Source: an uncultured Candidatus Poseidoniales archaeon (GTDB lineage Archaea > Thermoplasmatota > Poseidoniia > Poseidoniales > Thalassarchaeaceae). From it: a stretch of 64,000 bases of DNA. The translations under genes and the position numbers were made by a program. The notes under the pieces were generated by a model. It was not told where the DNA came from and did no database searches. It worked only from the letters and a program-made list of their open reading frames with translations. Positions 30,863 through 51,900 of the stretch are shown here, piece by piece. How positions within the stretch are numbered: the first letter of the stretch is position 1; every line of letters begins with the position of its first letter. The DNA lies in assembly GCA_963934015.1 (NCBI GenBank), contig CAWVWT010000002.1, positions 11,657-75,656 of the forward strand, given 5' to 3'.

Positions 30863-31482
30863 CCCCAATAGTCGAGAAAAACGATGTCCCGGCAGATGCG
30901 CGATTGCCCACAGCCCACGGCGAGTTTCGAATCCGTGTTTTTCACGACAAAAAAACCGGTTTTGATCACGTCGCTTTAACACTGGGGGATATGAATGGTC
31001 CGGACTCAGTCTTGGTTCGCTTACATTCAGAATGCTTAACTGGTGATGCATTCAGTTCAGCAAGATGCGATTGTGGTCCACAACTTGGCGCTGCGCTTCA
31101 GGCCATTCAAGAGCACGGGTGGGGCTGCCTTCTGTATTTACGTCAAGAGGGTCGCGGTATTGGCTTACACGCGAAAATTCAAGCTTATAATTTGCAGGAC
31201 AAAGGTGCCGATACATTGGATGCGAATCTAATGCTCGGCCATCCAATCGACGCACGCGATTATCGAATCGCAGCCGACATGCTTCGAGCGGTTGGAATTA
31301 GTGATGTTTGCCTTCTTACCAATAATCTGGACAAAGTTAGTGCGCTACAGGATTTGGGTATCATAGTCACCGAACGAATGCCATTGGTTGTTGGAATCAA
31401 TGAGGAAAACCGTGCATATTTGGAAACCAAGGCTACCAGAATGGGCCATGAAATCTCGCAGCATGAGCTTGGAATTGAGTAA
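30859..31482 (+). CDS. ribA: GTP cyclohydrolase II
   Basis: RLHSECLTGD, RCDCG, QEGRGIGL, LLTNN. Confidence 0.95.
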   Translation: MTPIVEKNDVPADARLPTAHGEFRIRVFHDKKTGFDHVALTLGDMNGPDSVLVRLHSECLTGDAFSSARCDCGPQLGAALQAIQEHGWGCLLYLRQEGRGIGLHAKIQAYNLQDKGADTLDANLMLGHPIDARDYRIAADMLRAVGISDVCLLTNNLDKVSALQDLGIIVTERMPLVVGINEENRAYLETKATRMGHEISQHELGIE

Positions 31483-31558
31483 TGGGGCCGCGACCGGGAG
31501 TTGAACCCGGGGTGGCAGAGCCACAATCTACCGTCCTAACCACTAGACCACCGCAGCC
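31483..31558 (-). tRNA. tRNA-His (GUG), encoded G-1 and CCA
   Basis: Reverse complement GGCTGCGG...GTAGA-TTGTGGC-TCTGC...GGGTTCAACTCCCGGTCGCGGCCCCA folds as a cloverleaf. Confidence 0.95.
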
Positions 31559-31676
31559 ACGATGTAAAACGGCGACCTGCGCACGGTATTTCAAGCAAGC
31601 GCAGGGCGCCGCTACACATACACGCATGCACTCGTGCAGGCGAGGGATTCAAGGGGCTGCTCGGCAGCGCAGGTCT

Positions 31677-34148
31677 ATGCACACCCGTAACCTCTCGGTT
31701 TTGCTGGTTCTCATTCTCACCCTTTCGACCATGCCTATGGCTGTCAATGGTGATACAGTCATCCGTTCCGAAGTGGTGGACTTGTTACCAGCAGGCACCT
31801 TCGACAATGCCTCTGAATGGGATTTATCCACCAACAAGGCGTACAGCACTGATTCTGCCGAACATTCTGCATCAATGATCGCAGATGGCCGCCTGTCATT
31901 CACACACAATCGGCCAGTCAACTACAACGAAATTGCAGCGTGGGCCTCAGTTTCACCTTCGGGTGACAATCTATCCATCGGCTACCCAGATTGTTTCAAG
32001 CCAATATCTGACCCGGTTTGTGACAATGATTCCGATGGGGATTCCGATGGCGGTTTTTCTTGGACCAAAGGGCCTATTATCGAGCTTTCTGGTTTTGATT
32101 TGAGTGCGGGGTCTAACTATGAAATTGCAAATGTCTCACTATCTGTCGCATTCCGAGTCCCCGCCTCACTACAGCAAGATAGTGTACGCATTATTGTTGA
32201 ATCTGGAGGAACACAGCATTTGATTAAAACATATGCTCACACGATGGGTGAAGTGAATCACATGAATTACAATGCAATGGTGTACTCATTGGATGGTATC
32301 CAATCTTGGACTTGGGCCGAATTGTCGAGCCTCACAATCATGCTTGATTACGTTTCAGTTGGTGAATTTGATGATACGGAATTGCAAGTGGATGCAGCGG
32401 GCTTAATTGTAAAGCATTTGCAACCTTGGGGGACTTTTGAATTGGCCCAGGCCTCACATTCGGTTTTGTTTGAAGAATTCCCAATAATCGAAATCAATCT
32501 AACAACGGGATCATTTGATGGATTATCATTGTCCCCTTGCGGTTTGGAAAATACAGGTCAAAATTCAGGTACTTGGGTAACATCACCGTTAGCACTTCCA
32601 CATGGACAGGCTTGGGGACGCTTCCATCCTGATCTGTCAGGTAATGCCAGTTGGCATTATTCTACATCAGAAAATGGTGAGGGGTGGTCCACAGTGATGC
32701 CAATATCTGCTGGTGAAATAATTCAAACAATAGCACCTCATCTTCGTTTTCATGGCACTCTAATCGATGGGTGTATCGAGGGCCTAACGGTCGATATCAA
32801 CAATCCGATGCTGACAATTCAAGGTGAAATTATTGGAGATGTGCATTCGATGGTGCCTGGGTTTGCCACGTTAAGGATTGCTATGAATGGGGAAGAAGTC
32901 GCCTCACACGACATCATGTCTAACAACTCAACATTTCACTTAATGGCTGCAGTGGGCCATCTCCTGTCACCTGGTGGCGGCGTTATTGAAGTGGGACTAT
33001 CGGCACGCTTCCATTGGTCTAGCAACGGAAGCTCAGAAGACATCATCATTCAGGTTGAAACAATGAGTATCAGTGGGGGTTTCCTAATCGAGTGGGATCG
33101 TGACCCAGTATGTGATGGACAAAATGACCAAATCTTCGATGAAGATGGGGGTGGGCGTTTGCTTGACTTCATTTACACATGTGCGGACGACATCACCCCA
33201 AATACCGACCTTGTTGTCACCGTGTCGAGTGCGGATACATCAATCCTGGATGCTAACTTCATAAATGGTCAGGTTCGACTTCAGCCTATCGCCGACGCCC
33301 ATGGCGAAACTACCGTAACTATTACTGTCAAGGATGAACGCCAGAATACTTGGGTAGATGAAATTGCAGTGATTATCACTGCTGTTGACGATTCACCAGA
33401 GATGGTATCGATTCCAGTTGAGCTGACCGTGGAAATCGATGAACCCATGTCCATCCCATTTGCATATTGGGACCGTGACACACCTTCCAATTTGTTGAAT
33501 ATTGAAATTACACCGGAGTGGGCTGTATTCTCAGCGGGTCAAATCACATTTAATCCAACCACAGTTGGGTCCCACTCCGTCATTATTTCAGTTACTGATG
33601 AGACAACAGAAATCAATCAAAGTGTCACAGTTATCGCTACAAAGCAGGCCGATGTTTGGGTGCAAAGCATTGACATCATCGATCAAAATACGGGGGAATC
33701 TTCGATTACCGAAGGCAATGATATTTCGATTGATGTTTTCGTTCGAAACAGTGGGCATATTGTAGCACAACCTGTTACAGTACGTTGTTCGATTGACGGC
33801 CAAACGATTGGCACGCCACAAATCGCAATGATTGCCCCAGGCGGACTGGAAACAGCATCCTGCAATGAGTGGAATCGGTTGGACATTAAATCCGGAGAGG
33901 TTACTTTGGAGATTGAGATTGATTGGACGGGTGAAGTTGATGAAACAAACGAAGTGAACAACTTGTGGTCGACAATCATCACGGTCCAAGATCGAAACGA
34001 ATCTCCAGGCGATTCTGATAATGGGCTGCAAACAGACTCAATTCTCAATGAATACAATTCATTCCTGTGGATCAGTGTCACTGTACTCGGCCTGTTTGCC
34101 ATATTGGTATTCATTTATGGGCCAAATCAAATTCGGAAGATTGAGTAG
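31677..34148 (+). CDS. Surface protein with cadherin/Ig-like and CARDB domains, C-terminal TM
   Basis: Signal peptide; ADAHGETTVTITVKD; ADVWV...VRNSG...VDETNEVNN (CARDB); TM. Confidence 0.8.
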   Translation: MHTRNLSVLLVLILTLSTMPMAVNGDTVIRSEVVDLLPAGTFDNASEWDLSTNKAYSTDSAEHSASMIADGRLSFTHNRPVNYNEIAAWASVSPSGDNLSIGYPDCFKPISDPVCDNDSDGDSDGGFSWTKGPIIELSGFDLSAGSNYEIANVSLSVAFRVPASLQQDSVRIIVESGGTQHLIKTYAHTMGEVNHMNYNAMVYSLDGIQSWTWAELSSLTIMLDYVSVGEFDDTELQVDAAGLIVKHLQPWGTFELAQASHSVLFEEFPIIEINLTTGSFDGLSLSPCGLENTGQNSGTWVTSPLALPHGQAWGRFHPDLSGNASWHYSTSENGEGWSTVMPISAGEIIQTIAPHLRFHGTLIDGCIEGLTVDINNPMLTIQGEIIGDVHSMVPGFATLRIAMNGEEVASHDIMSNNSTFHLMAAVGHLLSPGGGVIEVGLSARFHWSSNGSSEDIIIQVETMSISGGFLIEWDRDPVCDGQNDQIFDEDGGGRLLDFIYTCADDITPNTDLVVTVSSADTSILDANFINGQVRLQPIADAHGETTVTITVKDERQNTWVDEIAVIITAVDDSPEMVSIPVELTVEIDEPMSIPFAYWDRDTPSNLLNIEITPEWAVFSAGQITFNPTTVGSHSVIISVTDETTEINQSVTVIATKQADVWVQSIDIIDQNTGESSITEGNDISIDVFVRNSGHIVAQPVTVRCSIDGQTIGTPQIAMIAPGGLETASCNEWNRLDIKSGEVTLEIEIDWTGEVDETNEVNNLWSTIITVQDRNESPGDSDNGLQTDSILNEYNSFLWISVTVLGLFAILVFIYGPNQIRKIE

Positions 34149-35877: not shown

Positions 35878-36792
35878 TCATCGCCTCCATTCATCAAGGC
35901 AAACCGGGCATCGATTACGTCCGGAGTCCGTCCGGACGACATCCTCACCGCCACATGATCGGCAGGTCAAACCCTCCAAAATACGGCCATAGCCATGCGT
36001 GCGTGTTTTCTCAACTTCCTGTACGGTTCCGATAGTCTCTGCAGCACCACGATGGCGCCGTTGGCTGCGTTGTGTTCTTCGGTTGCTTTGTTTCTTCGTT
36101 TTCTTTTCTTTGAGAAGAACGAGTAGAGGCTCTTCCAATTTTTCTCCAGATACAACCAGGGGGTGGCTACGGTAGCGAAATAATTTGATGTGGCGATCGA
36201 GAATTCTCCCGAGAGGGGCACTTAGGGTAATGTAGGCAAGAATCCAGGCGGGGAAGAGAAGAATTCTGCCATTGAAACCCCACTGTGGATTCCATGGTAA
36301 ACTAACGTAATCAACTCGAAACCCTTCAACCATCACATACATCCAACTGAAAATGCCAATCACGAAAATCATCGTGAACATCATAGGTTTCATCATCCCC
36401 ATTTGCAATTTTGTAGTTTCAGGCATCAGATGCATTTGCATCTTCTGAATCTTCTCCAACCGCACATGATCTCTAGAGAGGCGTGCTTCATTCATCAACT
36501 TCCGTAACTGCTTGTTGCGATGATTGAGATGTGCTTGCATCATGGGGTCCATGAACAGAGACCTGAACACGGTGTTAACAAACATGATTGAGGAACCGAC
36601 GATAAGCACAGTTGGAACGAAATAGAGGTCATGGAACGGCAGGGTTGGTTCAAGTACACTTCCTGCGAGGTTTGCCATTGATAGGCGCAGGCTCTCACTC
36701 ATGAGGAAGAATGACATGCCGATTAGTAGGATGATTGGCATGAACAATTGGCCGAGCGGCATCTCGGGTTGATCGGGAATCTCTTCTGCCAC
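35878..36792 (-). CDS. DUF106 / EMC3-TMCO1 (Oxa1-superfamily) membrane protein with C-terminal zinc ribbon
   Basis: TM, coiled coil, MMKPMMFT, WILAY; upstream of cmk as is usual in archaea; CRSC..CPVC tail. Confidence 0.82.
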   Translation of the reverse strand: MAEEIPDQPEMPLGQLFMPIILLIGMSFFLMSESLRLSMANLAGSVLEPTLPFHDLYFVPTVLIVGSSIMFVNTVFRSLFMDPMMQAHLNHRNKQLRKLMNEARLSRDHVRLEKIQKMQMHLMPETTKLQMGMMKPMMFTMIFVIGIFSWMYVMVEGFRVDYVSLPWNPQWGFNGRILLFPAWILAYITLSAPLGRILDRHIKLFRYRSHPLVVSGEKLEEPLLVLLKEKKTKKQSNRRTQRSQRRHRGAAETIGTVQEVEKTRTHGYGRILEGLTCRSCGGEDVVRTDSGRNRCPVCLDEWRR

Positions 36793-36894
36793 GCTACAGT
36801 GCCGTTGAGGGCGTGCCATCAACCCTTCGGGTTGAAACCGTGTGATAATACGAGATAGGGGAAGACTTCAATTTGTGAACGTGTATACGCCCAC

Positions 36895-37659
36895 GTGGAC
36901 TCTCCAGAGCAGGCCTTGCGTGATGCGCACGCCGCGGAGGTTGAGGGTGACCTATTTCTTGCTGAATCAATCCTTCGTGCAGCTAGCAAGAGGTGGCGCA
37001 GGGAACCTGAATTCAAAATGCGGCACGGCAAGGTGTTGCGCAGCATTGGGAGTGAGCGAAAAGCGTTGAAAGTTTACCGGGCGGTAATCAAGGCCCACCC
37101 GCATCGCGCTGATGCTGCAATCGCTGCTGCTGAGACGGCTACATCACTCAACAAAAATCGGTTGGCTGAATCACTCTGGGCGCGTGCCTTGTCCGTTGGT
37201 GCTCCGACAGATGTTGCAACCGTCGGCCTGTGTAGGGTAATTTGGATCAGGGGGCGCAAGGAGGAGTCTTGGGAACGCGCTCGGAGCTCTTTCGTACACG
37301 GGGGTAATTCTAGCAGATTGTTGCATGATTTCCTCAGAGAGTGTTCCCCCGTAATTGGTACACCTGTACCCGAAATCGATGTACTGGAAGCAGGTGATTT
37401 GAAAGACGAATTCTCACCCATTGAATCACGGCGTGAATTGACGATGGAACCAGCTACGTTTGCGACAGATTCCGTTGAAGCCATGGCTGGGATATCTGCG
37501 GCAGATTTGGTGGTGTCCTCGAATGAGGGAATCAAAGAACTGCTGGATGGGAATCCTGAGAAACATCAAATTGATATGAGTAAAATGGACAAGGATTCCA
37601 CTGGCAAGGAATCCCGACCCGATGTCGAGATCCCTGATGATTTATTCGATTTTGATTGA
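36895..37659 (+). CDS. TPR-repeat protein with acidic tail
   Basis: Ala-rich helical repeats (ALKVYRAVIKAHP, AESLWARALSVG). Confidence 0.7.
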   Translation: MDSPEQALRDAHAAEVEGDLFLAESILRAASKRWRREPEFKMRHGKVLRSIGSERKALKVYRAVIKAHPHRADAAIAAAETATSLNKNRLAESLWARALSVGAPTDVATVGLCRVIWIRGRKEESWERARSSFVHGGNSSRLLHDFLRECSPVIGTPVPEIDVLEAGDLKDEFSPIESRRELTMEPATFATDSVEAMAGISAADLVVSSNEGIKELLDGNPEKHQIDMSKMDKDSTGKESRPDVEIPDDLFDFD

Positions 37660-40485
37660 TTAGAATGTAAACGCGCATACTGGGCATTGCGTCATTCCTG
37701 CAGCAACTTCGGCATTGCAAATCGTGCAGGATCTGACCTCAGATGAATCGCTTTCTGTTGGAGCAGTTGCTCCGGTGAGTTTTGCCAATGCAGCATCCAT
37801 TTCGTCATCCGTATCTGCACCACCTCCCACATCAGCCTCCTCGACATCTTCGACTTCTTCAACAGCCACCTCGACATCTTCGACTTCTTCAACAGTCTCC
37901 TCCTCGACATCTTCGAGTTCTTCAACAGTCTCCTCCTCGACATCTTCGAGTTCTTCAACAGTCTCCTCTTCGACATCTTCAACAACTTCAGGTTTGGCTA
38001 TTGGGATTGCTTCAGGTGGTGCCTCATCTTCAATTTCAGCACCGACATCAATGCCGTGAATTTCTTGTGCATCACTAACCTTGAACCCTGTTTCTGCATC
38101 TCCCTTGAATTCGTAAGTGACTTCGATTCGCTCTCCACGAGATACAGTTCCAATATTCCACGACATTTTCTTCCCATCAGTTGTGGCTTCTTCGACCATG
38201 TCACACTTGACAATGCCACCACCTGACGATGTAACCTTCCACTCGAGCAATTCAAATGCTCCGGGCATGATATCATGGATGACGACATCCTCAAGCGCAG
38301 AGTCGGCACGATTGTTGAACATGATCATCGCTTCGTAACGGCCAGCACCGCCAGCAGGGAAAACTTCCTTTCCTGAGTCATAATTCACCTTTCGATGAGT
38401 CACTCTAACGGCTGGTACAACATTGAGACCACGGGTGGCAACAGGTCCAAAGCGTTCTGAACTGAAATCAATTCGTGCTGGTGCTGCAACAACATCGTTT
38501 GCAGGGCTTGGGTCAGGGGCAGACAATGGGTATGTGATACACATCTTGTGACCTGGTGCCAACCCAATAGGGCCTTTCGTTCCAATGGTGATTAACATCG
38601 TGTGTCCAGGTCCATCTGGGGATGTACGATTCTCTTCGAGTGAAATACCATCTTTGAGTTCGATTCTGAACTGATCTTTAATCAGTTCGTTACCATCAAT
38701 ACTGGCCTTGACACTATCCGCATCTGGAGCAGTGAAAATACCTGGGATGTCATCGGTAATTCGAAGTAAATTGATTGTGGCGGAGCCTGTGTTTTCAATA
38801 TCCATAGTCGCCATCAATTCTGTCTGTCGATAGTGGCGCAATACATCGATGGAGTATGACTTCTCTATGGCGGCTTCGAGCACCTCAATAGTGAGTGGTT
38901 GCAATGTAACAGTTCCTTCGGTTGATTGACTCACTCTTGGTAGGACTGTATAGAGCAATTCTTGGCTGAATGTTGGCTTTTCTGTTGAGTGTACGACCTT
39001 GACATCACTTTCCCAACGACCATCGGGGAGAACATCGTCTTCAACATCATCAATTTCAAACAAATGCGCATCAACATCCGTTTGGCTGACTGTTAATTTG
39101 GTCAAATCAACTGTAAACGAAGAACGGTTTTCAAAGACAGCCTGACAACGGTAGTTGTCTGGGCGTTCATCTTCATCGACGACCATGTAAGAGAATCCGC
39201 GACAATGAGCATCGACTTCATTGAAATTTATCCCTGAAAGTGTTGCATCAGCAGTGTATGTCGCAGTTGCATGACCTGCATCGATGGCACCCACAGCTTC
39301 TGCTGTTACTGCTGTAGGAATCGACAGTGTACAACTTTCCCCAGCGGCAAGTCGTCCAACTGACCATGTCACAGTATCGCCCTGCTTATCGTAGCCATCG
39401 CCTTCGCTGACTTGAATTTCAATCGGGAATGTGCGTGTGACCACAATTCCATCCAGTTGAACAGGGCCCATGTTCTCGACTTCTAGTTCTAGCTCGATAT
39501 CCTGTGCATCTCCGCTTCGTTCAACAGAAAGACTTCGCTCTTGGTTGCGTGATGGATTGGTGTCAATTCGCTCACGAACGCAGAGCATACGCGGCCCTTC
39601 GACACTGTAGTTAACACTCTGGTCAGCTTCAGCTTCTAATTCAGAGAAGGGTAAATCAGAACCTATATCGGAGAAATCGGTGTTGCTTAGAACAACATCG
39701 ATATCCCACAGGCGATCTTTGTTACTGGGGTTCTTCAGTGTGAGAATTCCTTTCACTGCCTGCTTGACCATTTCACCGCTCGGTGTTAGAATCACATCTT
39801 CTGTTTCTGCAAGTGTTCCAACCAATTTGTGGCCAGGAATACCATCGACATCGGAAGTGCTCCGAATCTTACCACCCGCAAGGGCAGGGTCGGTTTCAGA
39901 AATCCCTTCCGAGGAATCATCGCCATCTGACTCATCTTCAGTAGCAGGGGCCAATAGATCGAGTCCAGGTGGTGCTGAAGGCACATCCTCTTCGACCTCA
40001 ACATCCACAGGTGGTTCGGGTGGAGCGAGTAAGTCAAGACCTGGGGGCATTGGGGGTTCAGATGGAGCCAGCAAGTCGAGACCCGGAGGCATTGGGGGTT
40101 CAGATGGAGCCAGCAAGTCGAGACCCGGAGGCATTGGGGGTTCGGATACTTCTGGTGACGCTTCCGAAATTTCTTCATCCATGTCACTCAATAGGTCCAT
40201 TGGGTCACCGAGATCATCCATCTCTAGTTCTTCTGGTGGCGCCGGTGGTGCTTCCGGTGGTGCAGGTGGTGCTTCCGGTGGTGCAGGTGGCGCTTCCGGT
40301 GGTGCAGGTGGTGCTTCCGGTGGTGCAGGTGGTACCAAACCCGGTGGAGCCGGTGGTTCTAGTCCAGGCGGTGCTTCCGGTGGTACCAAACCCGGTGGGG
40401 CTGGCGGTACCAAACCCGGTGGAGCCGGTGGTTCTAGTCCAGGTGGGGCTGGTGGTATGTTTGCATCATCGTGTTCGTCACTCAT
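37660..40485 (-). CDS. Large cytoplasmic protein: Pro-rich N-terminus, beta-sandwich core, acidic repeats, C-terminal zinc ribbon
   Basis: 941-aa ORF with no signal peptide or TM; CTIC..CPVC end. Confidence 0.85.
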   Translation of the reverse strand: MSDEHDDANIPPAPPGLEPPAPPGLVPPAPPGLVPPEAPPGLEPPAPPGLVPPAPPEAPPAPPEAPPAPPEAPPAPPEAPPAPPEELEMDDLGDPMDLLSDMDEEISEASPEVSEPPMPPGLDLLAPSEPPMPPGLDLLAPSEPPMPPGLDLLAPPEPPVDVEVEEDVPSAPPGLDLLAPATEDESDGDDSSEGISETDPALAGGKIRSTSDVDGIPGHKLVGTLAETEDVILTPSGEMVKQAVKGILTLKNPSNKDRLWDIDVVLSNTDFSDIGSDLPFSELEAEADQSVNYSVEGPRMLCVRERIDTNPSRNQERSLSVERSGDAQDIELELEVENMGPVQLDGIVVTRTFPIEIQVSEGDGYDKQGDTVTWSVGRLAAGESCTLSIPTAVTAEAVGAIDAGHATATYTADATLSGINFNEVDAHCRGFSYMVVDEDERPDNYRCQAVFENRSSFTVDLTKLTVSQTDVDAHLFEIDDVEDDVLPDGRWESDVKVVHSTEKPTFSQELLYTVLPRVSQSTEGTVTLQPLTIEVLEAAIEKSYSIDVLRHYRQTELMATMDIENTGSATINLLRITDDIPGIFTAPDADSVKASIDGNELIKDQFRIELKDGISLEENRTSPDGPGHTMLITIGTKGPIGLAPGHKMCITYPLSAPDPSPANDVVAAPARIDFSSERFGPVATRGLNVVPAVRVTHRKVNYDSGKEVFPAGGAGRYEAMIMFNNRADSALEDVVIHDIMPGAFELLEWKVTSSGGGIVKCDMVEEATTDGKKMSWNIGTVSRGERIEVTYEFKGDAETGFKVSDAQEIHGIDVGAEIEDEAPPEAIPIAKPEVVEDVEEETVEELEDVEEETVEELEDVEEETVEEVEDVEVAVEEVEDVEEADVGGGADTDDEMDAALAKLTGATAPTESDSSEVRSCTICNAEVAAGMTQCPVCAFTF
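37836..37987 (-). repeat. Intragenic 33-nt tandem repeat encoding EDVEEETVEE(L/V)
   Basis: ctcctcgacatcttcgagttcttcaacagt units repeated. Confidence 0.9.
40018..40145 (-). repeat. Intragenic 42-nt tandem repeat x3 encoding EPPMPPGLDLLAP(S/P)
   Basis: ggcattgggggttcagatggagccagcaagtcgagacccgga repeated. Confidence 0.9.
40234..40456 (-). repeat. Intragenic 21/24-nt tandem repeats encoding PPEAPPA and PPAPPGL(E/V)
   Basis: gcttccggtggtgcaggtggt and accaaacccggtgg units. Confidence 0.9.
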
Positions 40486-40627
40486 TCCAATTCCTCAGTC
40501 CCACGCGTGGGTTAGCGCTGTGACGATGTTGGATGTCGTATAACCATTGTTGAGCAGCATATTGCCCGGTCCATAGGACCGTGGCAGTGTCGGAGGGTTG
40601 ATGAACCACTGTTGATGGCCCACCACT

Positions 40628-41446
40628 GTGAGTGTAAGCGATAGTAGCACACCCCCAGTTCTATTCGTTGTCGGTACTGCCGGCGCAGGCAAGAGCACGC
40701 TCGTAACTGCATTCCAACGCTGGACACGTTTTCTTGAGGTGGAATGTCTTACGATTAATCTAGATCCTGGGGCGGAGCGAGTCCACTATGACCCTGAATT
40801 CGATGTCCGTGATTTGATATCTCTACACGAAGTTATGGAAGAGTATGATCTTGGGCCCAATGGTGCCCAAATCTTGGCGGCTGATCTCGTTGCAGCCCAG
40901 TCGTATGATATCCAAGACGAGCTAGCGGGCCTTTCCGGGGACTTACTGGTGATTGATACACCCGGGCAAGTTGAATTGTTCGCTTTTAGAGAAGCCAGTT
41001 CACACATGGTCGAGGTGCTAGGGCAGGGGCAGGCTGCTCTGATATTCCTATTTGATCCAATGCTATCCCAATCTGCATCAGGATTTGTTTCTCAAATGCT
41101 TCTTTCAAATATTGTGCATTTTAGATTGGGTTTACCAACAGCAAATTTCCTTTCTAAGGCCGATTTGTTATCGCCGGAAGATTTGGACCGCGTTCTTGGA
41201 TGGGGTGAAGATTTGGATCAACTTGAAGCCGCCCTTTTCGAAGAAGCAGGGGGTCAAAGAACAGAATTTGCAATTGGTCAACTTAGGATGATGCAAAATG
41301 CACAAATTCAACCAGGTCTTATTCCGTTGTCAAGCGAGCAAGAGGAAGGTCTTGCCGATATCCTGTCATTCGCGCAAAACATTTTCGGCGGCATGGCTGA
41401 TACTCGTGATGGGTTCGCCGGTGACATTGAAGATGAGCGTAATTGA
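40628..41446 (+). CDS. GPN-loop GTPase
   Basis: GTAGAGKST, NLDPG, LGPNGA, DTPGQVELF, SKAD. Confidence 0.95.
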   Translation: MSVSDSSTPPVLFVVGTAGAGKSTLVTAFQRWTRFLEVECLTINLDPGAERVHYDPEFDVRDLISLHEVMEEYDLGPNGAQILAADLVAAQSYDIQDELAGLSGDLLVIDTPGQVELFAFREASSHMVEVLGQGQAALIFLFDPMLSQSASGFVSQMLLSNIVHFRLGLPTANFLSKADLLSPEDLDRVLGWGEDLDQLEAALFEEAGGQRTEFAIGQLRMMQNAQIQPGLIPLSSEQEEGLADILSFAQNIFGGMADTRDGFAGDIEDERN

Positions 41447-41454
41447 GGGATTTG

Positions 41455-42408
41455 ATGGATGATGTTCAACACCTCCTATCCATCGATGATTTAGGTGATG
41501 ATTTCCGCAGCATTCTGGAATGGGCCATCCGATTCAAACAAGATCCTGAACCAGATTACGATTTCAAACCACTCGATGAACTTAGTATTGGCTGCATCTA
41601 TGAAAAACCCAGCACGAGAACGCGTGTTTCTTTTGAAGTTGGAATTCATAAATTGGGTGGACAACCACTGACATTACTCAAGGGCGACATTCAAATGGGG
41701 AAATCGGAATCAATTGCAGATACAGGTACAGTACTTTCGCGGTTTCTGGATGGAATTACTTACCGATGTTTTGGCCATGACATGGTCAGTACACTTTCTA
41801 AGAATTCTTCAATTCCTGTAATCAATGCACTTTCAGACAAGCACCACCCCTGCCAAGCAGCAGCAGATTTGATGACCATCATGGAACGAAACCCAACTCT
41901 AGAGGGTGAACGTGTTGCGTGGGTCGGTGATGGTAACAATGTACTCCATGATTTGATGCTAGGCTGTGCAATGCTAGGTGTCGATTGCACTTGGGCTGTG
42001 CCTGTCGGTTACGAACCCTCGGAAGATGTTGTCGAACGTGCGAATAAGATATCTCTAGAAACAGGGGCGCGAATGGTTCAAACGAATAATCCTGTAGATG
42101 CCTGTAAGAATGCAACCATCATTTACACTGACGTTTTCATCAGCATGGGTGAGGAACATCTTTCTGACAAAGTGGATGCATTTGAAGGGTTTCAAGTCAA
42201 CGAAAATTTAGTCTCAAATGCAACTGCAGAATATGGATTCATGCACTGTTTGCCAGCCCACCGGGGTGATGAGGTAACCGATGGGGTCATGGACAGCGCA
42301 AACAGTATCGTATTCGATCAGGCTGAAAATCGAATGTGGGCGCAGATGGCGATTCTCACTTACTTTTGCAATCCAGCTGCGTTCCAAGCCTACAATGAAT
42401 TGTATTAG
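41455..42408 (+). CDS. argF: Ornithine carbamoyltransferase
   Basis: STRTRVSF, HPCQ, GDGNNV, SMG, HCLP, QAENR. Confidence 0.93.
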   Translation: MDDVQHLLSIDDLGDDFRSILEWAIRFKQDPEPDYDFKPLDELSIGCIYEKPSTRTRVSFEVGIHKLGGQPLTLLKGDIQMGKSESIADTGTVLSRFLDGITYRCFGHDMVSTLSKNSSIPVINALSDKHHPCQAAADLMTIMERNPTLEGERVAWVGDGNNVLHDLMLGCAMLGVDCTWAVPVGYEPSEDVVERANKISLETGARMVQTNNPVDACKNATIIYTDVFISMGEEHLSDKVDAFEGFQVNENLVSNATAEYGFMHCLPAHRGDEVTDGVMDSANSIVFDQAENRMWAQMAILTYFCNPAAFQAYNELY

Positions 42409-45834: not shown

Positions 45835-45924
45835 CCAACCCCGCGGGGGGGCCTATGACTATTGAACGGTACGACTGAGCAGGGACGCGAAAGGTCAAGC
45901 GACGATGGCCTACCTCGCGGCGCT

Positions 45925-48900
45925 ATGCGCCGCGGAACACTCTCAATGAGTATGGTGATTCTGTTCGTTTTGAGCAGTTTTTCACCACTGATTGATATTG
46001 CGAAACCAGAGCATAGCGCAGTACAGGAAACCATAGTTTCGACTACTGAGGTCCAGTTTCCAATTTCCACTGCCTTTTCCCCCGGTGTTGAGTTCTGGTT
46101 ACAACAGGAGATTGCAAAACCGATGGTGCTAACACGTGACTTACAGGCGCTTCACCAGTGGCAAAGTGACCGTGGGTTGTTACCTAGCCAGGCATCCGGC
46201 GAATTTCTCCCCGCGCCCCCATCAAGTGGTGTAGTCGAGCACCGCCGGGTCACAATGCCAGGGTACCTCGTGCCCAAGTTGGCAGGCGTTGAAGGCGTAT
46301 TCGCGGTGTATGATGACAGTACTGGACCCGAACCGGTTGGTGCCTTGCCTGGTGGCCCGACCACTGTCAAGAGTGGCCAAATTCATGGGGCAACAGATGC
46401 GTGGGAGCGTGGTTACAACGGTTCAGGTGTTAGAGTTGCAGTTGCCGATTCAGGCATCGATTTTGCACACCCTGATCTGAATGGGACACAAGCGATTCTT
46501 GATGACGCAACATCTCCTTACGATGGGTGGGGTATTATGCATGACCCCATATCCTTGGTTCGTTGGCAACGCGATGGTTTGGCTTATCCAAGCGCTGGAA
46601 ACTCGTGGTGGGTTGAAACTACGAATCTCGATGTCGACACTGACAATGATTCAATACTTGATGCACAAGGATGGAATATTTCAGGGATAGATCAGTCCAT
46701 CTCTGGAAACTACCATTTTGGGTTGCATTCTGATTCGAAGTTAATCGAACGTGCGGGAGGTGATGTCATCATACTCGTCGTTGATACCCAAGTTGCAGGC
46801 ATATACGATACTGTATTCATCGACATCGATAGAGATGGTGATTTTGGTGATGAGAGTCCTGTAAACAAGGAAAATCCAACCTATGGGCGAGATACGAACT
46901 CTGATGGGCTTTGGGATCAAAGTGCTGGGTTGCTATGGTGGATTTCTGACGGTATAAATGGCGTACCCTATGGTGATATTTACGCCGCTAGAAATGGCTA
47001 CCAAAATCGTATTGCAGACGCCGGTGATTTGATTCTCTTGATGCTGAATGATGCATCCGAAGCTGGTGGTAATCATGGAACTCTGTGCGCTTCTGCCGTT
47101 GCTGCTCAGGGCACGATTGGTAATGGGGTTGTGTTGGGCATGGCTCCCGGAGCAGATTTGATTGCAGTCTCAAATCTGTATGCTGGAGGCTCTTGGCTAG
47201 ATTCGTTCCGGTTTATTGCAGAAGGATATGATGGTAATGCAACCACATCACATGATCAAGGTCAAATTGGGTCTTTCTCATTTGGAAATTCAGGTGCTCA
47301 CGATGATGGTGCTGACTACTGGTCACTCTACCTTGATTGGTTGACGCGAGTCCATTCTCCTGAAACAACATACTTTGTTGCTGTTGGCAATGGTGGACAT
47401 GGCTACGGGACGACAGCATCTCCGGGTGGAGCACACGGCGTAATATCGGTCGGTGCTTTTTCTTCGAAAGGTAGTACATGGGGTGAATCCGCCTCATGGT
47501 CGAATAGAGGGCCGAATTCTGTCAGCCGTTTGGATCCAGACATCGTTGCGGTCGGCTGGTCTGCAACCGGTGATAAAACATTGAATGAGGTAACAAATGC
47601 AAACAATGCACACACTACTTGGGGTGGCACATCACTCGCCACCCCGGTAGCGGCTGGGCTGGCAGCAATCATCTACCAAGCATGGCTAAACAATACTGGC
47701 GCTTGGCCCGATTCGCAAAGTTTCAGAGATCTCGTGATGTCGACTGCTGATGACCGAGGCTACGATCCACTCGTGCAAGGTGGTGGTTGGATGAATGCCA
47801 GCCGAGCAGTCGCAGCACTAGAGGGGGATGATGGCTCACTATTGGTGAGTCCTGCAGCATGGATGACTGGTCAGAACGAAGGTTCACACCGCGATGGGAA
47901 TCTCAATTACATCTTGCCAGGGCAGAATCAGACAATGCAACTTTCATTGTCGAATCCAGGCAGTATACCGGTAGATGTTTCTCTCACCCCTTCCGAACTC
48001 ATACCCGTAGCAGGTCGGCATATGGTTTGGAACAGTACAGATAGTGGAAATAACACAACTTGGGACGGCCATCAGAGCCGACCTGATTGGGCATTCCCAA
48101 TCCATATTGCTGGAGATGCAAACCTGTCCCTACCCCCGTCTGCTACATTGATACGTGCGCGAGCCGTTATGGAGGGTGAAGGTTTTGATGGTAATCAGGA
48201 TTTTCAATCTGAAAATCGCCTCCACCTCCGTATTTATCGTTGGATAGATAGTGATGGAGATGGAAATTGGACCAGTGACTTTGACAATGATAGTTATGTT
48301 GACGATGGAGATTGGACCGAATCAAACGAATTGGCAATGATTACAGAGCATGTGTATGAGTCCGGGCAGGTCGAAGTTCGTGTTGGCAATCCACACGATT
48401 GGGAAGGGGATGGTCTCATCGTAGCGCTCTGGCGTCAATTTGTGCGGGACCCAAACAAAGACCCGCTCCGCATTGAATTCGATTGGACCGCATTTGGTCC
48501 AGCCAACGACTCATGGATTTCAGCCCCTGCTAATCTCACAATCGCTCCAGGTAATACCACGCAAGTCAATGTGACCATCGATGTCCCTGCGAACACGCGA
48601 GGCGGTCTCAAGCAGCATGGGTTACGCATTCATGCAACGACAAACAACACAACTCGAGACTGGACTTGGCCTGTGATTACCAATGTCGGTTTCAATGGAC
48701 CATTTTCTATTACCCCTACTCTCATTGATGGGAATGTTAGCAACCAGACACTCTATGATGAAACATGGTTGCAAGGTGCGCAGCGGTGGGGATGGAGGGC
48801 CGAATCTGGTGATTGGAAATTTTTGACGATGGATTGGCCCACTTCTCTATCTGGAAACGGTTCTATCCTCGTCGATGTTGATTGGCCAGATAACGCCTAT

Positions 48901-51900
48901 ACAGACGTAGATGTTCATTGGATGAGTGAAGCAGATCACCCCTTCTATCTTGATGACCCTACTGCTTATGGGCCAAGAACAGTGGTAATGGAAACTGGTT
49001 CCGTCGGGCAGCACCAAGGCAGTGGAAAATACGCTTACTACACCAATGGTGGCGGGAGTAGAGAAATTATCGTGGCCGATGATACACCTGGAACCAAACA
49101 GATGCTTCTGCATTCGGCGATGCATGGGGTCAACACAAATGACAATCCATTGAACATCAGTGTTGGTTACATTTCTCCATTAGATGCGGGATTGTCAACT
49201 AGTCTTTCTGATTGGACTCAGATGAGTGGTGTATCAAGCCATCGAATTGGCTCTACAGTCACATTAGATGTGGCTTCAATCAACGCGCATGGATTCACGA
49301 TACCGGAATATTTGTCGAGTGAGGTTGCTTACCAAGATGACCCGGGGGATATCACATCCTCTTCCTATATTCAAGAATTCTCTGCAGGCTTAAATGAATT
49401 AATTGAGGTTGAGATTGGATGTCACCAATCTGGAATTGACCTGGATATGTATCTCTACAGGGACAAAAATAGCAATGGTGTTTTGGATTGGGGGAACGAA
49501 CAGGTTGGCAGTTCAGGTAATTTTAACTGTGACGAATCGATTGCTTATGGTGGTGGACAAGCAGATACTTACTGGGTCGTCGTTCATGGTTATGATTTAC
49601 GCGCATCCAATACAACATTCTGGTTACGGTGGTCGGAAATTGGTGGTGCAGACCTTGGGATTGCAGATTATACATCCTTGAATCCTCCTCAAATTAGCAG
49701 TAACTACACCAATGGTTCTAATGCTCTTGGCGGCTTGATGCCCGAGAGTGTAATCGAACTGAATTTGACCTGGAATCGCCCCCGCAGTGCTGGCATATGG
49801 GAGGGGTTTGTTGATCTCACATTGACGAGTGGAGGTTTGATCAGGTTGCCCTATAGTTTCACTTTAACCGATCCCGTTCCAGAGGTTGCATTCTCTATAC
49901 CTAACGGCACGCGGACAAATCAATCAATTGCAATATCGATGAATGCGCATGATCGAGGGACAGGATTCAATGTTAGTGGACTGAATTTCGATTCTGGTGG
50001 TCAAATCGCTGGAGTATTGCCAAATGCGTCAACGTTCGAAACAATATCCATTGATGGGACTCAACACAATGATACACTCGATTTATGGCAGCATTGGAAT
50101 TCAAACCGAGCATACAGCGACGGGGACCACTATGCCACGGTGAATAACACGTTATCGTTGGAGGCAGAATCTGCGATGAATACTATGGCTGGTAATGGAC
50201 CAGACTGGTCTTTGGCCAATTCGGAATTAAACTTTTCAGGTTCTGGTTACATGACATCGGTAGCAGATGGGTTTGATTCAGGTAATATCTCATCAGGTTC
50301 AAGACTTTCATGGGATGTTGAATTTGCTACAATAGGCACATATTGGGTTTGGATGCGAATGCAGCAACATGGCGAATCATCTGATTCAATTCACATCGGC
50401 CTTGATGGTACAGCCCAGTCGGTTGCACAAGGTGGAATGGGTACAAATGCAAGTGGATGGGTTTGGGCCAATGCCTATGCGAATCAATCGATGAACTTGC
50501 GGGTATTCCTCAATGTTTCTTCTCCCGGCCGTCATACAGTTGATGTTTGGATTAAGGAATCAGGGGTTGATTTCGATCGTCTTGAATTGACCACATCACA
50601 GGTTTGGCTTCCTCCCACAGTTCAGCCAGCAAATTACTCACCAGCATCTGGACGATGGAATGATTTAACACTCCGATCTGCATGGTTGAATTGGACTCTC
50701 CCCAGTGATAATCAGTGGCATGATTATGCAGCAGATGCACTGGATTTGACCGATCGCATCGACCAAGCTAACCTGCGAATTGAGCACGATGATATTGCCC
50801 CCCCCATCGCAATCCATAATTGGCGAATGTTTACCAATCAGGCGCAATTATCTGACACTTGGGTGATGACTGACCCTGAGGCAAATTTTTGGTTGAATGG
50901 GACTGAATTACCAGTCAATGAAGAAGGTCGAGTGGACTTGAACTTAGAACTTCAGCCAACCATTTGGGGTCGTACGATATTCGACCCAGCGACACCTGAA
51001 CATTGGGACACAACCACTTGGCAATGGCACGAGATCAATGATTTCGTGTTCACCTCAAGAGATCCTGCAGGGAACTGGAATTCCGCCAACGCCAGCATGG
51101 TGTTTGACCCTTGGGCACCTGACAATTCGGGGCCAACGCCGCAATTATCCTTTGATTTCATCAGTGTTCCCGAATGGGGTGATGTTGACGTATCTGTCCA
51201 GTCAACACAACCCTACAGTTTCAATGTAGGTGAATTGTCAATTTCAAGATTGTTTGATGGCAGAGAAATTTGCCTTAGCATCTTATCATCTAGTGGATTT
51301 GAAATGGAACAACAATGTCAAATTGACAACGCCCCCCCTTGGGGCGAAGCACCTTACTCCAATCGCCCGATAATGGAAGAAAACCAATTTGTGATTAATT
51401 TCACAGATTGGGCTGATGATTTGTATGAATTGCGATTAATCGTAACAGATTGGGCAAACAATACAGGAATACATAACACTACGATTCTTATTGATCGCAC
51501 TGCACCTGCTATTGGCATAGCATCCCCCACAGATGAACAGATACTCTTAGACCACCATCTTGAGATTGCATGGAATGTTAGTGAACGGAGTTATCAGTGG
51601 GTGGAAATCAATGGTGAAAATATATGGTCAGTGGGACAATTTCAAAATGGTAGTCAGAACTTACTTATTGAACTTGGGCGAACTGGGAACCACACAATCT
51701 GTATCTATGCGTGGGATGATACTGCGATGGAAGGGTTCATTGGGCCCAATTTGGCTGAGAGCTGTGTTGAGGTGACTCTGCCTGAACAGACCTATTGGCC
51801 CTTACTTGGTGCACCATGGAATGATACTCATGTAAGCACCCCGAGGGTCTGGGTGGAACTGACACTGGGCCCCGACCAATTTTACGATTGGTGGCACGAT

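Follow-up and report, generated by a model that had tools for sequence, protein, structure and literature searches.

The mu-homology domain (MHD) is the module by which eukaryotic vesicle coats recognise cargo, and the archaea of Marine Group II (MGII) are more abundant than any other planktonic archaea in the surface ocean. One MGII gene in the window, by which we mean the whole stretch of 64,000 nucleotides analysed, raises the question of whether its 941-residue product contains such a domain and, if so, whether the protein is an adaptor of the vesicle-coat type, as a sequence-only reading of the locus had suggested.

The open reading frame, the strings quoted from it and their positions were all found where that reading had placed them, including the acidic repeats and the zinc ribbon CTIC...CPVC (Table 1). 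ETEDVILTPSGEMVKQAVKGILTLK occupies residues 227–251 (nucleotides 39733–39807), DIELELEVEN residues 329–338, DGIVVTRTFP residues 345–354, TVTWSVGRLAAGESCTL residues 371–387 and MSWNIGTVSRGERIEV residues 774–789. From N- to C-terminus the protein is composed of a Pro-rich region, an all-β core, acidic repeats and a zinc ribbon; it is very acidic as a whole (pI 4.05), and its first 204 residues hold 65 prolines and not a single lysine or arginine. The reading's statement that the protein lacks a signal peptide and transmembrane segments was borne out by a hydropathy scan (used here in place of a signal-peptide predictor), in which the highest Kyte-Doolittle mean over 19 residues was 1.09 and no transmembrane or signal-like segment appeared, and a hydrophobic segment was likewise not found in 32 relatives.

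Table 1. Features of the gene and its product, with positions in the window
Feature	Residues	Positions	Strand	Basis
Whole gene, soluble acidic protein (P0001)	1–941	37660..40485	(-)	ATG start; stop codon 37660-37662
Pro-rich repeats PPAPPGL[EV] and PEAPPAP, within disordered N-terminus	~10–85	40231..40458	(-)	sequence; 21-nt and 24-nt tandem DNA repeats
Acidic linker with MDLL and four GLDLLAP	MDLL at 96; GLDLLAP at 121, 135, 149, 174	39946..40200	(-)	motif positions, enrichment, DNA repeats
Predicted MHD fold	~221–438	39172..39825	(-)	AF2, Foldseek, profile against PDB, Pfam
Ig-like β-sandwich 3, opening with the family-wide PDxWxCxxxFENxSxF	~440–529	38899..39168	(-)	DSSP of core model, consensus; approximate
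Ig-like domain 4, long loops	~532–696	38398..38892	(-)	DSSP of core model, consensus; approximate boundaries
Ig-like/DUF11-type domain 5, holding MSWNIGTVSRGERIEV	~702–794	38104..38382	(-)	TIGR01451, DUF11, DSSP
Acidic repeat tail	831–895	37801..37995	(-)	33-nt tandem repeat, 4.5 copies
Conserved short motif MDAALAKLTG	896–905	37771..37800	(-)	pattern MDxAL[AQ][KQ][IL]TG in 109/120 close homologues
Four-Cys zinc ribbon CxxC-x10-CxxC	920–937	37675..37728	(-)	sequence; 117/120 close homologues

A predicted mu-homology-domain fold followed by Ig-like domains

For the core (626 aa), AF2 gave a model with pLDDT 93.3 and pTM 0.77. When this model was compared with the PDB by Foldseek, only generic multi-Ig chains were retrieved (PrgB, antigen I/II, integrin alpha; TM 0.11–0.28); the whole-core search is therefore silent on the MHD question, and a domain-level search was needed. 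A separate model of residues 205–456 (pLDDT 95.8, pTM 0.84) gave 74 matches at E<=1e-3, and the 40 that were listed are all AP-1/2/3/4 mu chains, MHD crystal structures or COPI coat entries. These listed matches extend over 223–259 columns against MHDs of ~250 residues, with TM 0.50–0.65, identities of 8–16% and, in all rows but one, an rmsd of 3.8–6.5 Å; among them, 6bnt_A aligns over 232 columns (TM 0.62/0.63, rmsd 3.8) and 4ikn_A, a target of 249 residues, over 250 columns (E 4.1e-7). The AlphaFold and Foldseek check named in the sequence-only reading thus matched MHD chains at the level of the domain, where the predicted model is a two-lobed β-sandwich superposable on solved MHDs along its whole length.

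In MHD topology lobe B is inserted within lobe A, and the final strands go back to lobe A. DSSP assignment of the AF2 model, from which the approximate domain boundaries were taken, gives six strands (lobe A), seven strands (lobe B) and two more, an order that would fit the interleaved topology. From the near-full-length sequential Foldseek alignments we infer that the last two strands of the model (core positions 216–234) return to lobe A.

Profile searches pointed in the same direction. With a 74-member family profile, which includes the window's own sequence and matches its gene at E 1.2e-224, 26 of the 29 matches among PDB sequences (E<=10) were AP-2/3/4 mu or delta-COP and none was an Ig-repeat protein; the best match (E 3.4e-4) comprises two collinear stretches. 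The single 941-residue protein, used as a phmmer query against the PDB, gave nothing beyond low-complexity noise (E 0.57 or worse). HMMER reproduced both stretches of the mu2 likeness named in the earlier reading: the strand aligned as 'elvWkieeL' to mu2 'IVWKIKRMAG' stood at 15.4 bits, whereas the opening pattern E.E..L...G.V....V.G.L scored 4.8 bits alone and is not significant. Pfam Adap_comp_sub (PF00928) is touched by 34/66 family members at E<=1 (best 1.9e-10), and muHD (PF10291) by 2/66 (best E 0.067). Some Asgard members, such as the Promethearchaeota protein P0182 at 34.9 bits, pass the Adap_comp_sub cut-off of 31.6 bits, whereas the 941-residue protein stays below it with 13.0 bits over its whole length and 15.0 bits for residues 205–456.

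These matches have to be weighed against a simpler reading, in which the protein is a plain string of DUF11/Ig folds. An MHD's lobe B is an Ig-like sandwich in its own right, and the MHD likeness of the protein would for that reason be generic or convergent and uninformative on function or descent. DUF11 (PF01345) is the sole Pfam family above cut-off in the protein (45.3 bits against 24.6, in two stretches, best at 328–415) and is matched by 65/66 members; the Adap_comp_sub match (positions 118–197) falls on the same residues 328–415, which form lobe B, and the whole-core model, as noted, found multi-Ig chains only. Since the significant sequence match covers only this DUF11-like lobe (profile ~117–236), whole-domain homology to eukaryotic MHDs rests mainly on the predicted fold. 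We nevertheless regard a mere tandem-Ig protein as quite improbable: the first 252 core residues matched MHD-containing chains in all rows listed and no tandem-Ig PDB entries, with TM ~0.6 whether normalised on query or target; the PDB matches of the family profile are MHDs; its second stretch, although weak, is collinear with the start of the MHD; and an export signal is missing. DUF11 proteins are usually at the cell surface. The 941-residue protein resembles the DUF11/TIGR01451 surface-repeat proteins in its two DUF11 stretches and in a TIGR01451 match at residues 721–755 (E 6.7e-5, just below cut-off), but differs from them in having no signal peptide or anchor, in carrying a four-Cys zinc ribbon and in that one 'DUF11' unit would lie inside an MHD fold.

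The predicted structure therefore supports an MHD fold at residues ~221–438 only. An MHD-like core had been proposed for residues ~215–810; the remainder of that span is three Ig-like/DUF11-type domains, and the tandem DUF11/Ig alternative raised alongside it also holds for part of the protein. Opposite mu2 Phe174 and Asp176, which together with Trp421 and Arg423 we take to be the residues of the YxxPhi cargo (Tyr) pocket, the HMMER alignment places Val and Thr in unconserved profile columns, and the Trp421/Arg423 region lies outside the alignment; the comparison leans towards the absence of the pocket residues from this protein.

Family membership and distribution

The closest homologues (89–91% identity) are labelled Thalassarchaeaceae (MGII), in agreement with the earlier placement of the protein outside Asgard archaea. 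Family matches at E<=1e-3 comprise 492 representatives, many of them 590–750 aa long and collinear over core positions ~20–600 at 20–30% identity. Taxon labels are available for 7/30 representative clusters, of which five are Asgard (Njord-, Jord-, Thor- and two Prometh-archaeota), one is Korarchaeota and one Thalassarchaeaceae. A collinear core of ~580 aa and the common motifs NxS..R.W, FENxSxF and HxRR....GK identify the 941-residue protein as the MGII version of the archaeal MHD-plus-Ig family first listed for Asgard archaea. In the portions of Eme et al. 2023 (PMC10307638) drawn on here, the archaeal MHD figures solely as a candidate with a sparse distribution in Asgard archaea; the 'C-terminal domain of the mu subunit' candidates given there belong to the same family (~580-aa core collinear, 20–30% identity) and, like the 941-residue protein, are soluble and without a longin domain, whereas the host in the present case is a Thermoplasmatota (MGII) archaeon. 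No report of an MHD in non-Asgard archaea was found in the literature, supplements aside.

The survey of phylogenetic distribution that the earlier reading had called for revealed a near-universal gene: full-length matches occur in 19/21 and 40/42 genomes of two MGII families and in 23/24 genomes of a further Thermoplasmatota family (f18), with a single match in each listed MGII genome and in that of the window, although such counts come from related, non-independent genomes and overstate the support. A family listed for Asgard archaea is thus a near-universal single-copy gene in MGII and in one further Thermoplasmatota family, and the range of a domain that is counted among the eukaryotic signatures of Asgard archaea is wider, the domain being either older or laterally transferred, which bears on the reading of such lists. 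The family tree is unrooted and quick, with few named rows. Within the phylum of the Thorarchaeota genome the profile matched 168/201 genomes, and one protein (P0313) used as query recovered 52 related loci, most of them labelled Thorarchaeota and Promethearchaeota loci among them; a related-locus search with P0182 confirmed nothing, two family alignments offered no stretch of sufficient conservation for a locus scan, and a protein search with one family alignment returned only 8 proteins and is of little use for distribution.

Relative to the Asgard family, the Pro-rich/acidic-Leu N-terminus and the acidic tail stand out, as they were not seen in the distant relatives examined or in families f18 and f10. 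A few distant relatives bear their own C-terminal zinc ribbon; most of those examined, like the f18/f10 proteins examined, do not.

Disordered tails and repeated motifs

The N-terminal Pro/acidic region with four GLDLLAP and one MDLL is present as described from the sequence. The first 204 residues contain DLL five times, where shuffles gave 0.225, and a count of five was reached in 0/20,000 shuffles. These are repeated motifs of the clathrin-box/DLL type in a disordered region, although three of the GLDLLAP copies are not independent events because they sit inside a single 42-nt tandem DNA repeat (3.2 copies). At least three PPxPP within the first 260 residues were found in 78/120 close homologues. 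In a separate count, DLL occurs 181 times (12.0 expected) in 78 close homologues that have a long N-terminus, with at least one in 74/78, in genomes whose relatedness makes these counts, too, overstate the support. Conservation of LDLL, which the sequence-only reading had made a touchstone, therefore holds among close relatives, but the exact motif is lost across MGII, where other genera carry other repeated acidic Leu/Pro motifs in its place (DPL or ALLGG repeats in MGIIa). Among the 2,356 ORFs of 100 aa or more in the genome, a scan for proteins with two or more [GA]LDLL found no second DLL-repeat protein; the sole other protein with that many copies is a membrane protein in which the two are chance-like.

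The three close homologues without the C-terminal zinc ribbon include the two labelled partial. No Pfam match at E<=0.1 to SAP or EF-hand domains was found in the tails of MGIIa proteins. When the core (626 aa, with alignment) was paired with residues 85–200 of the N-terminus in a complex prediction, the score was 0.00 in both runs, which is uninformative either way.

Partner genes and gene neighbourhood

We compared the protein with the MHDs of AP-1 to AP-4 mu and COPI delta, to which it is related by the predicted two-lobed all-β fold and by a weak but specific profile similarity. Differing from them, it has no longin domain, the MHD being preceded instead by the 204-residue Pro/acidic low-complexity region, it carries three extra Ig-like domains after the MHD, and its aligned Tyr-pocket position is unconserved. 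Its genome, which is 88.6% complete, likewise gave no sign of large and small partner subunits or of a GTPase of the Arf type: there was no match to Clat_adaptor_s at E<=0.1 (a search that matched in no control genome), to Adaptin_N (a search that matched in only 3/14 control genomes) or to Arf at E<=1e-3. On the reading that we favour, the protein does not form part of an AP/COPI-like tetramer.

Clathrin-box/DLL motifs in eukaryotic accessory proteins recruit coat, and by analogy the protein could be a true membrane-cargo adaptor in which the MHD binds lipids or the tails that membrane proteins expose to the cytosol while the acidic Leu motifs recruit a coat or scaffold. The predicted MHD fold and the enriched repeated motifs in the disordered region directly before it would suit such a role, as would the gene for an EMC3/YidC-like insertase (a protein that itself carries a zinc ribbon and has a basic tail) that adjoins the MHD gene on the same strand in 7/8 MGII loci; this adjacency carries little weight, however, because the insertase belongs to a housekeeping block syntenic throughout MGII. 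Clathrin heavy chain (PF00637, E<=0.01) and Snf7 (ESCRT-III) add to the adaptin, sigma/longin and Arf families without a match in the 88.6%-complete genome, the Pfam scan of the protein detected no membrane-binding module, and the position aligned to mu2 Asp176 is the unconserved Thr. The vesicle-coat adaptor role put forward from the sequence thus lost its expected partners, and we consider a membrane-cargo adaptor unlikely.

The MGII gene block reads CARDB-Cbf5-CMP kinase-EMC3-like-(TPR-like 254 aa)-MHD-GPN-OTCase-UbiA, with GPN, OTCase and UbiA in 8/8 loci and the EMC3-like gene in seven of these, whereas seven f18/f10 loci share none of it and have PcrB, PfkB, an uncharacterised protein and NFACT as neighbours. 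We rejected gene neighbourhood as a functional clue, as these are housekeeping genes kept within MGII only and absent from the f18/f10 loci.

Rather than at a membrane, the protein could work in biogenesis or information processing (related to the ribosome, RNA or chromatin); its acidic tail would then bind basic proteins or imitate nucleic acid, and a nucleoprotein complex would be the docking site of its zinc ribbon. The very acidic tail and the zinc ribbon are compatible with this proposal, as are the conserved MGII neighbours Cbf5, cytidylate kinase and GPN-loop GTPase, NFACT as the divergent neighbour at two f18 loci and, as a lead only, one look-alike Atlas cluster (score 0.88) with a SAP domain in 23% of its members. 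Neighbours vary between lineages, however, no nucleic-acid-binding Pfam domain (E<=0.1) was found in the protein or in five MGIIa-type relatives, and tail and zinc ribbon cannot define the core function of the family because neither the f18/f10 proteins nor most of the distant relatives that were examined have them; we give the proposal little credence.

A proposed scaffold role

The explanation that we favour, and hold to be reasonably likely as a whole, is that the protein is an MGII member of the MHD-plus-Ig family, soluble and cytoplasmic, that works as a monomeric multivalent scaffold. Its folded core would consist of one MHD-fold module and three Ig-like/DUF11-type sandwiches, forming a rigid rod that may offer protein- or peptide-binding surfaces. 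To this core MGII would have added the ~200-residue disordered N-terminus with its Pro-rich repeats and acidic Leu motifs (here ΦDLL), the acidic repeat tail, MDAALAKLTG and the zinc ribbon; the floppy tails could recruit partners through multiple short linear motifs, and the ribbon may provide one further docking point. A multivalent cytoplasmic scaffold is probably what the protein is. A fold joined to disordered motif tails is an architecture typical of eukaryotic hub proteins, and in the MGII version the predicted MHD fold is accompanied by long disordered tails in which short motifs recur.

Among eukaryotic proteins, the muniscins FCHo/Syp1/SGIP1 and the stonins are monomeric MHD adaptors with a long disordered motif-repeat region before the MHD. 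By analogy, the 941-residue protein would resemble them in having such a region and in not being part of a tetramer, but it has neither an F-BAR nor another membrane module, its MHD is not C-terminal, and no known partner of DLL-type motifs was found in its genome. A bolder proposal, to which we assign only a slim chance, is that MGII archaea run short-motif sorting or scaffolding at the cytoplasmic face of the membrane, with the MHD protein as cargo or lipid adaptor and GLDLLAP, ADPLAPP or ALLGG, depending on genus, recruiting an assembly partner; on that view, endocytic-accessory logic of the eukaryotic kind would be present, or would have been picked up, beyond the lineage of Asgard archaea and eukaryotes. 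The repeated tail motifs make a search for partners by peptide pull-down straightforward.

Pieces of the gene were also found in contigs from two RNA-library runs of one sample, runs that were themselves found with the 941-residue gene, so that the contigs attest presence and are not proof of transcription. The flanks at 36800–37741 and 40568–41500 were without cover in these contigs, and two of the pieces agree with the gene without any difference.

Composition of the protein and fold of its core

The protein carrying the putative mu-homology domain (MHD) is soluble and very acidic (pI 4.05), and its first 204 residues contain 65 prolines and no lysine or arginine. The highest 19-residue mean in a Kyte-Doolittle hydropathy scan was 1.09 and therefore no membrane span or signal-like N-terminus was seen, in agreement with the sequence-only reading, which had noted no signal peptide or transmembrane segment; every string quoted in that reading was found where it had been placed, for example ETEDVILTPSGEMVKQAVKGILTLK at residues 227-251 (nt 39733-39807).

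Features of the window considered here, with coordinates in window positions
Feature	Position (nt)	Strand	Remark
MHD gene	37660-40485	-	Single ORF, 941 codons, ATG start (ORF reading)
EMC3/DUF106-type membrane insertase	35878-36822	-	
254-aa protein	36895-37659	+	Weakly TPR-like (E 0.007, below cut-off); convergent to MHD gene
888-aa CARDB-domain protein	31482-34148	+	Part of conserved Marine Group II block
2336-aa ORF	45862-52872	+	
Cbf5			Neighbour of MHD gene
Cytidylate-kinase-like protein			Neighbour of MHD gene
GPN-loop GTPase			Neighbour of MHD gene
Ornithine carbamoyltransferase			Neighbour of MHD gene
UbiA prenyltransferase			Neighbour of MHD gene

Scanned alone against Pfam, the protein matched DUF11 above cut-off (45.3 bits, residues 328-415) and, on the same stretch, Adap_comp_sub below threshold (13 bits versus a cut-off of 31.6), while phmmer with the single protein returned no useful match among PDB sequences. 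With the core (residues 205-830) as query, exhaustive searching of 1.84 billion representatives recovered 492 relatives at E <= 1e-3, many of them 590-750 aa long and aligning collinearly, at 20-30% identity, with core positions ~20-600. A family profile of 74 of these relatives matched 29 chains among PDB sequences at E <= 10, 26 of which are AP-2, AP-3 or AP-4 mu or delta-COP (top match AP-2 mu, E 3.4e-4), the remaining three being unrelated (E 0.7-2.1); the mu2-type alignments suggested in the sequence-only reading re-emerged in this comparison as two collinear stretches. When 66 members were scanned singly, DUF11 was matched by 65 and Adap_comp_sub by 34 at E <= 1 (best 1.9e-10), with one Promethearchaeota member exceeding the Adap_comp_sub cut-off at 34.9 bits. 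HEAT_2 occurs in three of the 66, and in P0237, a Thorarchaeota-labelled relative, a HEAT-repeat domain (HEAT_2, E 8.5e-15) is fused N-terminal to the MHD-Ig core.

AlphaFold2 with the family alignment predicted the 626-residue core as all beta (pLDDT 93.3, pTM 0.77). A structure search with the whole-core model gave only generic multi-Ig chains (TM 0.11-0.28), and residues 205-456 were therefore modelled separately (pLDDT 95.8, pTM 0.84). Foldseek matched this sub-model to 74 PDB entries at E <= 1e-3, and the best 40 of these were all AP-1/2/3/4 mu chains or COPI coat entries, with TM of 0.50-0.65 on both normalisations, rmsd mostly of 3.8-6.5 Å and 223-259 aligned columns, compared with ~250 residues for an MHD. 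The MHD plan comprises lobe A, an inserted lobe B and a return to lobe A, and the predicted strand order of six, then seven, then two fits this plan. Taken together, these results indicate that residues ~221-438 very probably take the MHD fold, and the Pfam DUF11 unit is in all likelihood its lobe B. Residues ~440-794 are predicted to form three more Ig-like sandwiches, the last of them DUF11/TIGR01451-like. Of the two possibilities raised in the sequence-only reading, the MHD-like core is retained for ~221-438 and gives way to the sandwiches in the remainder, and the simpler alternative of tandem DUF11/Ig folds describes that remainder.

Relation to coat adaptors

The protein combines an MHD-fold module and three Ig-like domains with flanking low-complexity tails, which carry repeated motifs and a four-Cys ribbon. 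We envisage a monomeric multivalent scaffold, in which proteins or peptides would dock on the folded rod, as on eukaryotic MHDs, and the tails would recruit multiple copies of a partner. The nearest eukaryotic architecture is presumably that of muniscins and stonins, monomeric adaptors whose MHD is accompanied by disordered regions rich in motifs, and by analogy the likeness would lie in an MHD and a motif-rich disordered region within a monomer.

A role as an AP/COPI medium subunit was rejected: the longin domain is absent, and Clat_adaptor_s, Adaptin_N, Arf (E <= 1e-3), Clathrin and Snf7 had no match in the window's genome (88.6% complete), the Clat_adaptor_s and Adaptin_N negatives being weak because in control genomes the former search matched none and the latter just 3 of 14. 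A YxxPhi-type pocket also seems unlikely, because in the profile alignment the position opposite mu2 Asp176, a residue with a role in that pocket, is Thr in this protein and unconserved.

Distribution and evolution

The nearest proteins have core identities of 89-91% and bear the labels Candidatus Thalassarchaeaceae or Poseidoniales, that is, Marine Group II (MGII), which bears out a host outside Asgard archaea. The homologue search scored 7997 candidates and gave 1022 matches at E <= 1e-3. A sample of 301 genomes from the window's phylum yielded full-length matches in 19 of the 21 other members of the window's own family, Thalassarchaeaceae, and in 40 of the 42 genomes representing the sister family in the same order. 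Further full-length matches fell in families f18 (23/24), f10 (1/2), f42 and f44 (once each), and none of the eight genomes from a third family in the same class had one; the other matches at E <= 1e-5 in this sample were short and covered DUF11 only. A single match was seen in the window's genome and in each of the MGII genomes listed. Of 201 genomes sampled from the phylum to which a Thorarchaeota chromosome belongs, 168 matched at E <= 1e-20, at one to five places each. A taxon name was attached to 7 of the 30 representative clusters looked up (Promethearchaeota twice; Njordarchaeia, Jordarchaeales, Thorarchaeota, 'Korarchaeota' and Thalassarchaeaceae once each), and Atlas look-alike clusters were exclusively archaeal (Thermoplasmatota, Promethearchaeota, Thorarchaeota).

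A quick, unrooted tree places all MGII sequences in a single clade (SH-aLRT 100), which is joined with support of 87 to the f18 clade and to a few rows without labels, and the same half of the tree also contains Thor- and Promethearchaeota-labelled rows. This topology would be compatible both with a single old acquisition from an Asgard lineage and with ancient presence followed by loss. A shorter, much more divergent version (687-689 aa, 29% identity), with the zinc ribbon and lacking the long N-terminus, is the only match in one Thalassarchaeaceae lineage (G063, a genome of genus g5 in the same family, and protein P0133), which hints at replacement or fast evolution.

As far as the accessible part of the literature goes, the archaeal MHD family itself is already known from Asgard archaea, where it is listed as a sparsely distributed candidate for the C-terminal domain of the mu subunit (Eme et al. 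2023, PMC10307638), and the MGII protein is a new version. In the publications searched, an MHD was not described from Thermoplasmatota or from any other archaea outside the Asgard group, and the family goes unmentioned in the passages seen of a paper devoted to archaeal families specific to single lineages.

N-terminal motifs and tails

DLL occurs five times in the protein, always within the N-terminal 204 residues, against a mean of 0.225 expected by shuffling, and a count of five was not attained in any of 20,000 shuffles. A single 42-nt tandem repeat of 3.2 copies accounts for three of the four GLDLLAP units, and the Pro-rich and acidic tracts of the gene are likewise tandem DNA repeats. 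The 78 homologues whose N-terminal region spans at least 120 residues are relatives of one another and not independent trials; 74 of them have at least one DLL, and the total is 181 versus 12.0 expected by shuffling. Among the 120 closest homologues, 117 have the zinc ribbon, 109 the MDxALxKxTG motif and 78 at least three PPxPP within the first 260 residues. Where the exact LDLL changes in other genera of the family, SALDAL, DALL or even DPF is found, and the four sister-family loci read carry six to eight ADPL[AM]PP (three loci) or four ALLGG (one). Because the exact motif varies among farther genera, the constant of the MGII N-terminus is a repeated acidic Leu/Pro motif and not LDLL itself, so that the LDLL repeats singled out earlier persist among closer homologues and are replaced farther out.

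The Pro-rich N-terminus, acidic tail and zinc ribbon are absent from the f18 and f10 proteins (frames of 662-712 aa) and from most of the distant relatives read; a few of the latter have their own zinc ribbon at the C-terminus. Relative to these proteins, the Pro-rich N-terminus and acidic tail look like MGII-specific additions.

In MGIIa-type orthologues (proteins P0121-P0123 and P0126, and locus L018) a ~50-residue segment within the C-terminal ~120 residues replaces MDAALAKLTG and contains a loop fitting DxDx[DN]xY[LI]xKxE, which resembles the consensus of an EF-hand calcium loop; Pfam gave no EF-hand match in this segment at E <= 0.1. The orthologue at locus L017 (genome G185, another genus of the family) has a disordered N-terminus without DLL that holds DDPFGAPPPADPFASAF, with two triplets of DPF, a motif bound by eukaryotic AP-2 appendages; the two may be chance. 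Long PPGPP/PPSGPP repeats occur in two other ORFs of the window's genome, both on the plus strand and running to or near contig ends (contig C49, from base 4484; contig C9, from base 56140); the MHD protein is not the only one in this genome to have such proline tracts.

Gene neighbourhood

The MHD gene is surrounded by ordinary housekeeping genes of archaea, and no conservation of the neighbourhood was found outside MGII. RNA-library contigs containing pieces of the MHD gene are evidence of presence only. The 254-aa protein, present in only two of eight MGII loci, has an acidic C-terminus ending in DDLFDFD. The insertase gene lies directly downstream of the MHD gene on the same strand in seven of the eight loci, and its product has a long basic C-terminal tail (KKTKKQSNRRTQRSQRRHR) with its own CxxC...CxxC zinc ribbon at the end.
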